From: Octopus vulgaris
Lineage: Eukaryota
DNA length: 64,000 bases
Direction of reading: 5' to 3'
Assembly (NCBI GenBank): GCA_951406725.2
Contig: OX597824.1
Location: forward strand, 58,094,001 to 58,158,000
The notes under the pieces were generated by a model. That model searched no databases. It saw only the letters and a program-made list of their open reading frames with translations, and had not been told where the DNA came from. Of this stretch, positions 53,276-56,851 are shown in pieces. The number at the start of each line of letters is the position of its first letter. The first letter of the stretch is position 1. The translations under genes were made by a program, and so were the position numbers.

Positions 53276-53389
53276 GATAGATAGATATATTTATATACAT
53301 ATATGTTTACATGTATGTGTGTGTGTGTGTTTGAGCGTGTGTATGTATTTATATATATATATATATATATATATTTATTATATAGAAGG

Positions 53390-53440
53390 AGCTTCTACAG
53401 GACTAGTACTGTTTCATTCAAGAGAAATCTTCAGGAAGCT
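53390..53440 (-). ncRNA. Type I hammerhead ribozyme (left arm)
   Basis: Minus strand AGCUUC CUGAAGA UUUC-UCUU-GAAU GAAA CAG-UACUAGUC-CUG UA GAAGCU; identical to 56682-56732. Confidence 0.82.
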
Positions 53441-54714
53441 ATTTAACAAGAATTGTATTAGCATTTATACATTTAGGCAGGTTTAAAGGAGTGGTGGTGG
53501 GGGACTTTTTGGGGGTAGGCATAGCGCAAAATATCATACTTGGGGGAGTGGTCAAGGAGTCAGTGGTAAGTTAGATGAAAGAATAGATAAATAAAATAAT
53601 AAAAAATAAAAAAATAAAATAAAAAATAAAAAAATAAAAAATATAAAAAATATATATAAAAAAATATATATATAAAATATATATATATAAAAAAATGGGG
53701 GATAGAGTTATAGGTAAATAAGGAGATTCTCACTTATACCTATACACACATGTATACGTATCTACACATACATACATACACATATATATACACACACATA
53801 TATATGTATATATATATATATATATATATACATATACATATGTACACACATACATACATATCTACATACACACATACATACACCCGCCCACATATACAAA
53901 TTTATACACATGCACATGCCTATACCTGTCTACACATACACACACGTATATATGCATACACTCACTCCCATGCATGCACGCATACACACATGTATATATA
54001 TATATATATATACCCACGACCACACATACATATATACACATAAAAATATATATTCATACGCACATACACTCATGCACACACAACACACCTAGTTCCCTAT
54101 ATACACATATTTACACCTATATATACATACACCCACATACACCTATGTACACATATATATATATAAACATATACACGCATACATATATATACATGTGTGC
54201 ACATACATACATACACACATATATACATACACATACACATACACATGTGTACCTATACATACCTACACATACACACATACATACATACAAATATACATAT
54301 ACATATATATATATACAATCCAATACAGGCCCATTCCCTAATTTTAATTTTATTATCTTCATTTATTACTTTTGTTATCTTTGATCGCTAGGGCTAAGAA
54401 TCCTGGCAATGGCTGCATGTCCATTTGTCTGTCTACTAGAAGGCAAGTACTCATTCCCGCACGCACACTCATTAGCACGTACATTCACCCATTCGTACAC
54501 TCATACACATACACGTACGCACGCGTTATATTCATACATACAAACATCTACATACGTTCACGTATATACACATACGTACTCGTACCTACAGATTCGTGTC
54601 TACACTTTAGGAGGCTAGTCTATACATATACACCAATAAATATACATATATATATATATATACACGCATATACATACACACACACACATATATACTCCTA
54701 CATACAGATACATA

Positions 54715-54762
<48 letters not shown>

Positions 54763-54936
54763 CATACACATACACACATACATATACACACACATACATA
54801 CACATATATATACATACACAAACATATATACACACATATATATATACATACACACATACACACATACATACGTATACATACATACATACATCCATACATC
54901 CATACTTACATGCATTTATACGCATACACACACCCA

Positions 54937-54971
<35 letters not shown>

Positions 54972-55248
54972 TCACACATACATATACAAATCTACGCACA
55001 CACATACATACATACACGCATACGCATACACGCACATACACATATACATGCGTACCCATACACGTGCACACACGCACGCGCATCCATATATATACACACA
55101 CACACATATATATACACGTGTGCAAGCATACATACATACTCATACGCGCACACATACTTACAAATACATATATGCACACACTTACACACATATATATACA
55201 TACACATATACATGCATACATACATATATGCATACATACACACACGCA

Positions 55249-55290
<42 letters not shown>

Positions 55291-55353
55291 TATATACATA
55301 TATAGATATATATACACATACATACACATACACATACATACACACATATACAC

Positions 55354-55384
<31 letters not shown>

Positions 55385-55588
55385 TACATATATACACATA
55401 TACATACATATACATACACACACACATACATATATACATATACACTGATACACATACCCATACATACACATGCATATACTTATATCACTACATACTCACA
55501 TATATAAACATATATACATATACACACATACATATATACATGTACATACACATACGTATGCATATATATATATATACATCTATATACA

Positions 55589-55625
<37 letters not shown>

Positions 55626-56288
55626 TACATATACACATATACATGTATACATACGCAAAAATGATACACATATATACACATACACACACACAGACAGATG
55701 CATATACATACATATATATCAGGATTCTTAGCCCTAGCGATCAAAGATAACAAAAGTAATAAATGAAGATAATAAAATTAAAATTAGGGAATGGGCCTGT
55801 ATTGGATTGTATATATATATATGTATATGTATATTTGTATGTATGTATGTGTGTATGTGTAGGTATGTATAGGTACACATGTGTATGTGTATGTGTATGT
55901 ATATATGTGTGTATGTATGTATGTGCACACATGTATATATATGTATGCGTGTATATGTTTATATATATATATGTGTACATAGGTGTATGTGGGTGTATGT
56001 ATATATAGGTGTAAATATGTGTATATAGGGAACTAGGTGTGTTGTGTGTGCATGAGTGTATGTGCGTATGAATATATATTTTTATGTGTATATATGTATG
56101 TGTGGTCGTGGGTATATATATATATATATATACATGTGTGTTTGCGTGCATGCATGGGAGTGAGTGTATGCATATATACGTGTGTGTATGTGTAGACAGG
56201 TATAGGCATGTGCATGTGTATAAATTTGTATATGTGGGCGGGTGTATGTATGTGTGTATGTAGATATGTATGTATGTGTGTACATATG

Positions 56289-56337
<49 letters not shown>

Positions 56338-56681
56338 ATATATATGTGTATGTATGTATGTGTGTGTAGATACGTATACATGTGTGTATAGGTATAAGTG
56401 AGAATCTCCTTATTTACCTATAACTCTATCCCCCATTTTTTTATATATATATTTTATATATATATTTTTTTATATATATTTTTTATATTTTTTATTTTTT
56501 TATTTTTTTTTTTTATTTTTTATTATTTTATTTATCTATTCTTTCATCTAACTTACCACTGACTCCTTGACCACTCCCCCAAGTATGATATTTTGCGCTA
56601 TGCCTACCCCCAAAAAGTCCCCCACCACCACTCCTTTAAACCTGCCTAAATGTATAAATGCTAATACAATTCTTGTTAAAT

Positions 56682-56732
56682 AGCTTCCTGAAGATTTCTC
56701 TTGAATGAAACAGTACTAGTCCTGTAGAAGCT
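56682..56732 (+). ncRNA. Type I hammerhead ribozyme (right arm)
   Basis: Stem I AGCUUC/GAAGCU; core CUGAAGA(56688-94); short stem II with U-U closing pair; GAAA(56707-10); stem III ACAG/CUGU with palindromic loop ACUAGU; GUA ending at 56726. Confidence 0.82.
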
Positions 56733-56815
56733 CCTTCTATATAATAAATTAATTTTACTCTGCTATGTATTGAGTACCTTACTTACTGTGGTTAACCCCG
56801 AATCAACCCGGGACC

Positions 56816-56851
<36 letters not shown>

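Follow-up and report, generated by a model that had tools for sequence, protein, structure and literature searches.

Two head-to-head copies of an abundant hammerhead-bearing repeat in Octopus vulgaris, probably the product of one recent Penelope-like insertion

Described Penelope-like layouts and the octopus locus

Penelope-like elements (PLEs) typically carry an inverted, 5'-truncated copy and a tail on one side only, the tail usually being 30-40 bp long (PMC8557442). The same arrangement is reported for Pen1-6 of Adineta vaga (PMC3846280), and hammerhead pairs on opposite strands are reported for Schistosoma Cercyon (PMC4209133). Hydra-clade elements, which are PLEs with a C-terminal endonuclease (EN+), are generally shorter than 3 kb including their ORF, and insertion into (TA)n is listed for 26 of 27 families of this clade; Penelope-13_HM, of 3045 bp, has a (TA)n target, hammerheads on both of its strands and, at nt 1-966, an inverted 5'-truncated copy (all PMC8557442). 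PLE transcripts begin in the upstream pLTR (PMC6765202), and for EN+ PLEs the capture of host DNA beside the pLTRs has been described (PMC3846280, PMC4209133, PMC11167929). Animal non-LTR retrozymes are direct tandem monomers of 150-450 bp that give circular RNA (PMC7229834, bioRxiv 10.64898/2026.07.22.740005).

The locus analysed here lies in a 64-kb stretch of Octopus vulgaris DNA (the window). At a probability of about 0.8, we read it as two truncated copies of an abundant hammerhead-bearing repeat, head to head in (TA)n and derived from one recent Penelope-like insertion (Table 1). The layout itself is already described in other animals. The two outer arms, 1033 bp on the left and 1030 bp on the right, are reverse complements at 98.4% identity over 1039 columns; the alignment has 2 substitutions (53983/56142 and 53806/56319) and 4 indels in simple-sequence tracts. 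This bears out the near-perfect arms of about 1030 bp described in an earlier, sequence-only reading of this DNA. They are the sole kb-scale near-identical inverted pair in the window, their outer 218 nt are identical, and a gap of 1314 nt separates them. Reading outward, each arm runs through TATAAAT, a 51-nt hammerhead motif and AATAAA (at 53379 on the minus strand in the left arm). This terminus is present only at the two outer ends, in opposed orientation, and no direct upstream pLTR was found. The tail, claimed to be right-sided and 70 nt long, is indeed confined to that side and measures 69 nt; its end lies close to a hairpin of 4 bp whose loop is rich in A and C, and (TA)17 follows. No flanking host DNA is mirrored beyond the arms, and a target-site duplication is unreadable within (TA)n, so that none is measurable.

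Table 1. Features of the head-to-head locus and of a related stub, in window coordinates
Feature	Positions	Strand	Basis
Third, decayed terminus stub of about 60 bp	42687..42747	+	91.8% identical, ends in AATAAA followed by T, between two (TA)n tracts
Left part of (TA)n target tract	53350..53372	.	Sequence
Long 5'-truncated copy, 2347 bp, tailless, ending in AATAAA followed by T against (TA)n	53373..55719	-	Left arm plus (inferred) spacer
Left arm of inverted repeat	53373..54405	-	Alignment
Type I hammerhead motif, predicted cut after 53396	53390..53440	-	Motif scan
TATAAAT, promoter-like, faces outward (left)	53463..53469	-	Sequence
Spacer, 1314 bp, single occurrence: non-repeat island of about 210 bp, then minus-strand TG/TA microsatellite	54406..55719	-	
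Inferred head-to-head (5'-to-5') junction of two copies	55719..55720	.	Microsatellite-to-unique step and polarity flip
Short 5'-truncated copy with tail, 1099 bp; right arm is its first 1030 bp (55720-56749)	55720..56818	+	
TATAAAT, promoter-like, faces outward (right), 29 nt before stem I start	56653..56659	+	Sequence
Type I hammerhead motif, predicted cut after A56726	56682..56732	+	Motif scan
AATAAA plus T, first family terminus (short end)	56743..56749	+	Loose ends, left arm, third copy
69-nt one-sided tail; inferred second family terminus (long end)	56750..56818	+	Depth collapse
Right part of (TA)n target tract	56819..56851	.	Sequence

The sequence-only reading had divided the locus into arm, body and arm. 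We consider this parse probably wrong, because the spacer appears to continue the left arm. A single microsatellite polarity holds over 53701-55700, across left arm and spacer. No run of this kind in the window is longer; the right arm comes second with 600 nt, and outside the element the maximum is 500 nt. The composition of the spacer (A.43, C.24, G.05, T.27) is that of the left-arm microsatellite and the mirror of the right, and non-repeat sequence is continuous across the boundary of 54405 and 54406. Between 55719 and 55720, an abrupt step from microsatellite to unique sequence coincides with a flip of polarity, and the cumulative C-G curve peaks at 55734. Most likely, then, a minus-strand copy running from 55719 to 53373 is joined to a plus-strand copy running from 55720 to 56818; that is, we infer two copies joined at their truncated 5' ends, one of 2347 bp without a tail and one of 1099 bp with it.

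The body had also been taken as almost entirely microsatellite, which overstates it: 63% of the element (2175/3446 nt) is microsatellite-like, against 29% in the rest of the window. The absence of a credible ORF was confirmed, since all 23 ATG frames of at least 60 aa are mainly repeat translations, and neither copy holds an ORF for a PLE-type RT or GIY-YIG endonuclease. An autonomous EN+ PLE has one ORF that joins these two domains, and a direct, partly tandem pLTR upstream of its body; the Hydra clade is marked by the RT/EN signatures RWK, DKT and a CxCX5C linker, without CCHH. Because there is no ORF, we file the element as a PLE-type insertion and neither as an autonomous PLE nor as a member of Hydra.

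In its (TA)n target, its head-to-head inverted copy and its hammerheads on both strands, the locus resembles Penelope-13_HM as reported. With the EN+ PLEs described so far it shares head-to-head inverted ends, a tail on one side, a TATA in the pLTR, an AT-rich target and hammerheads on opposite strands, whereas its arms are longer than the described 200-bp pLTRs and it has neither a direct upstream pLTR nor a measurable target-site duplication. Unlike Hydra-clade elements it has no ORF and carries at least 2.3 kb, mostly microsatellite, before the ribozyme. What is odd in relation to known PLEs is this stretch of at least 2.3 kb of ORF-free, single-polarity microsatellite, a tail about twice the usual length (69 nt against 30-40 bp) and a long loop III. 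The earlier suggestion of a retrozyme-type element fares less well. The locus is non-coding, has a type I hammerhead and is likely PLE-dependent, as animal retrozymes are reported to be, but it consists of two opposed copies, has a unit of at least 2.3 kb, and offers no same-strand ribozyme pair to release a monomer. No direct tandem monomers of a few hundred bp with a same-strand hammerhead occur at the locus and, without tandem units, it is not a retrozyme.

We found no published description of this octopus family, although Repbase, Dfam, the O. vulgaris repeat library and bioRxiv supplements may include it. The word "ribozyme" is absent from the text of the O. vulgaris repeat paper, and motif searches of the PMC8557442 supplement did not find four motif words of the element. 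Identity with Hydra-1_Obim was rejected, the hammerhead given for that element in PMC8557442 being different.

The hammerhead motif and its repeat family

The sequence-only reading had proposed two identical type I hammerheads, and at the level of the motif this holds: both are present at the proposed sites. Each is built of a 6-bp stem I, CUGAAGA (at 56688, and at 53434 on the minus strand), a 3-bp stem II, GAAA, and a 4-bp stem III with an 8-nt palindromic loop, followed by the GUA triplet whose H17 is A56726 or 53396. The core CUGANGA / GAAA / NUH together with stems I and III is thus present in both, and they are the only complete type I motifs in the window. None of 100 simulated windows contained such a motif (order-1 Markov on 44,439 non-microsatellite bases, both strands); as mutual copies, the two motifs amount to a single event.

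Rfam had been named as a check on the hammerheads, and no hammerhead model appeared among the matches listed. The scan of the window at gathering thresholds found only a 5S rRNA-like copy, and the E-value scans of the element and of the motif alone gave matches that are microsatellite-driven or due to chance (for the element, none a hammerhead among the best 150 of 192). Folding of the motif is no more stable than that of shuffles (z -0.18), and the folding z-scores of motif and tail are uninformative. Stem II lacks the canonical G10.1-C11.1 pair and is closed by U·U instead. Among the hammerheads of Hydra-clade PLEs, no build is commoner than a short stem II with this U·U closure, seen in 14 of 25 families by our count by eye of PMC8557442 File S2; the same four-pair stem III appears in 4 of the 25, whereas loop III has 1-3 nt in the Hydra rows against 8 nt here. 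The axolotl HHR_Amex2, with U·U at the base of helix II, is reported to be 22% cleaved in 1 h as a monomer and to cleave better as a dimer (PMC7229834). PLE hammerheads are often weak on their own (PMC4209133), and the anole hammerhead needs protein and is dispensable for insertion in vitro (PMC11167929). Judged by its build, the motif would be a known natural hammerhead variant despite the Rfam miss, and we treat it as a candidate ribozyme.

A palindromic stem III that permits dimeric folding had been claimed, and the energy model agrees: the symmetric dimer is predicted at -27.0 kcal/mol as against -7.3 kcal/mol per monomer, which makes dimeric folding probable. The palindrome itself needs a qualification. 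The ACUAGU loop that had been described is present at this locus, but the 6-nt form is a minority allele in the family, for U at 56715 accounts for 88-92% of family depth in all 4 runs compared and leaves a 4-nt CUAG palindrome. Of the variants listed at 10% or more in these runs, the ones that touch the motif are confined to loops II and III (56700, 56715 and 56718), which speaks for a hammerhead, and none falls in the right TATAAAT. At 56718, in loop III, A>G makes up 12% of depth (10 contigs) in X1, which is a putative RNA run, but 0 in each of the remaining three; it may be an allele or A-to-I editing.

Scans of metagenome and viral contigs with the exact motif gave 0 matches. A looser core pattern found five metagenome loci, of which four (L001:8001-8026, L002:209-234, L003:8001-8026 and L005:8001-8026) can close as compact type III hammerhead candidates with the same core and U·U-closed 3-bp stem II, a 7-bp stem I and a 5-6-bp stem III. 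At gathering score Rfam misses these candidates too, and their sharing of the core and stem II also counts in favour of the motif. All five loci were rejected as relatives of the element because not one of them yields a type I motif of the present kind and four can close as type III.

The terminal sequence is far from unique. All or part of 56380-56818 is present in 21 of the 24 public runs listed, from 12 studies, with at least half of its words in 15; six runs recorded as RNA contain only 0.10-0.15 of these words. We compared 4 of the 24 runs over 56545-57140 only, each of them consisting of contigs. In run X21 the summed contig depth is 790,310 at the hammerhead against 4.85 in the unique flank, depth here not being a copy number, and 59,000-163,000 over 56545-56684. 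The terminal 270 nt or so is part of a very abundant repeat, with thousands of copies or more as inferred from a rough floor of about 5,000 that allows for overlapping contigs. Upstream of the hammerhead the X21 depth drops 5-13-fold, as expected from 5' truncation or from diverging subfamilies. In runs X9 and X1, loose ends before 56601-56608 suggest sister subfamilies that differ in their upstream sequence, and among the loose ends listed one from X10 matches the start of the hammerhead in reverse complement, which we read as a probable further head-to-head junction.

The family appears to have two termini. At the short end, each of the 4 runs shows loose ends of (AT)n after 56749-56753 (among those listed), and the left arm and the third copy (Table 1) stop at the same point, AATAAA followed by T. 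In that third copy, core position C3 is altered and the 5' strand of stem I is missing; to its left, also between (TA)n tracts, about 140 bp of unique sequence at 42480-42620 (plus strand) may be the stub of another retroelement. The long end is marked by a collapse of depth in bin 56805-56824 in all 4 runs; because the reads appear cut at the repeat, it is located only approximately. The ratio of tail to hammerhead depth is 0.53 in X21, 0.41 in X9, 0.39 in X10 and 1.65 in X1. We do not read the higher X1 value as a sign of expression, since depth in contigs says nothing about RNA levels and X1 is no more than a putative RNA run. As in a PLE-type footprint, the copies are dispersed and mostly truncated, and their 3' termini are fixed and lie in (TA)n.

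Origin of the mirrored layout

A Penelope-like origin had been proposed, and the head-to-head truncated copy, the one-sided tail, the (TA)n target and the hammerhead in the terminus all speak for it. The proposal that the hammerhead sits in a pLTR-type end likewise agrees with a motif in the terminal repeat and a family end at AATAAA followed by (AT)n. Because the other copies of the family either stand alone as stubs or share this end point, and because tandem monomers are lacking, the mirror layout is best explained as a side effect of a single insertion. The 2 substitutions in 1030 bp make this a young event, as had been claimed: if a scale on which JC 0.09 corresponds to 25 My (PMC13282606) applies here, and if there was no conversion, the insertion would be well under 1 My old.

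At 56632, 56662, 56680 and 56715 the two arms agree in having the minority letter, which points to one template. The shared letters and the near identity would equally fit a copy made at the DNA level, in which an older single insertion was later inverted-duplicated by template switching in DNA repair or replication, or had its arms homogenised by gene conversion. We consider such a history improbable. The left end lies exactly where AATAAA meets (AT)n, a terminus also seen in an unrelated copy in the window and in 4 of 4 runs, and a repair event has no reason to stop at a family terminus; an inverted duplication is also at odds with the lack of mirrored host DNA in the flanks.

The sequence-only reading had instead taken the whole 3.4-kb foldback as the mobile element, a non-autonomous, ribozyme-terminated retroelement. 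Such a unit, of retrozyme-like or foldback-like type, would be copied as a whole from read-through RNA. The lack of coding capacity, the almost identical arms and the 2.0 kb of single microsatellite polarity, where no more than 0.5 kb occurs elsewhere in the window, fit such a unit. Its ends, however, are asymmetric and match two family termini, the same end occurs as a lone stub at 42687-42747, and depth rises steeply towards the hammerhead. The locus also lacks the tandem direct monomers that define animal retrozymes, and a transcript of the unit would form a 1-kb duplex burying the ribozyme. We judge this quite improbable. Foldback DNA transposons and MITEs have symmetric terminal inverted repeats and move as one unit with target-site duplication; that class was rejected on the asymmetric ends and the lone stubs of one end. 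An assembly artefact, from a foldback chimeric read or mis-joined repeat copies, is very improbable: inverted PLE insertions are known to trouble assemblies (PMC8557442) and none of the pieces listed spans 56545-57140, but the 1.3-kb spacer is unmirrored, the outer flanks differ, the arms show 6 differences, both sides have biologically specific ends, and the right flank is matched with 0 differences in run X21, which may be the source sample.

How one Penelope-like insertion could yield two opposed copies is suggested by the anole Poseidon protein, which cleaves AT-rich DNA on both strands, extends each of them, and uses two internal RNA start sites for reverse transcription that delimit the tail (PMC11167929). 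By analogy with that in vitro system, the reverse transcriptase/GIY-YIG endonuclease would cut both strands of the TA tract, and each nicked 3' end would prime reverse transcription on the same RNA template, from one internal start site after AATAAA and another at the end of the tail. The cDNAs would halt early, at about 2.35 and 1.1 kb, and then be joined between 55719 and 55720. The two-primer model comes from one in vitro system in a different clade, and head-to-head junctions have also been attributed to self-priming on an antisense template (PMC3846280).

The template may well have belonged to a non-autonomous family with a microsatellite body, at slightly less than even odds. An autonomous family whose 3' region would be unusually long is less likely, and a short family end with captured host DNA upstream of it somewhat less likely still. 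The enzyme was probably that of a PLE of Hydra type, acting in trans or on its own RNA.

Another PLE family has left a remnant at 3008-4060 (plus strand), with a 183-aa frame that resembles GIY-YIG/HTH clusters (atlas score 0.97; GIY-YIG on 19% of cluster members; no Pfam match). It continues with (AAT)n and, by eye, a degenerate hammerhead-like end near 3940-3970. The GIY-YIG part (3008-3559) was rejected as a partner of the foldback element because it shares no terminal sequence with it. At 7860-7925 (minus strand), CUGAUGA and GAAAC words with a possible stem II adjoin (CA)n, a possible hammerhead remnant that fails the strict scan. The window further holds a decayed LINE with an AP-endonuclease domain at 45-1768 (minus strand; PF03372, E 1.7e-14), the 5S rRNA-like copy at 19927-20045 (minus strand; 82.6 bits), which is a gene, a pseudogene or the head of a 5S-derived SINE, and non-repetitive open frames on both strands at 15612-15995, possibly an exon, with no Pfam match.

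Ribozyme activity, read-through and meaning

In an intact tandem arrangement, processing of the transcript would fall to the hammerhead, which would probably act as a dimer or with the help of protein. The present locus would not transcribe itself, because its two TATA boxes point into the flanks and a direct pLTR upstream is lacking; here the hammerhead is most likely a passenger. Since the TATA boxes point outward, a hairpin would need host read-through, and RNA made in that way would contain the antisense arm first. The antisense duplex over the motif is predicted at -92.9 kcal/mol and would override the ribozyme fold, so that a balanced switch is unlikely; the competition between cleavage and hairpin that had been envisaged is speculative.

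A further, broader proposal is that the locus represents a distinct and recently active non-autonomous, Penelope-dependent family, whose RNA would be more than 2 kb of single-polarity CA/TG microsatellite with a promoter-hammerhead-tail unit at its end. Such a family would spread long microsatellites across the genome, and its head-to-head insertions would leave hairpins of kilobase size that undergo A-to-I editing on read-through. We hold this to be unlikely as a whole, the only hint of editing being A>G at 56718 in X1.

As it stands, the locus shows a known insertion layout in a clean and young form, and its significance is limited. Because both ends, the junction and the shared alleles are legible, it lends itself to testing the PLE insertion model with two start sites and two primers. 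If the microsatellite body is the sequence of a non-autonomous family, retrotransposition would be a route to the microsatellite load of this genome, and also a source of long double-stranded RNA.
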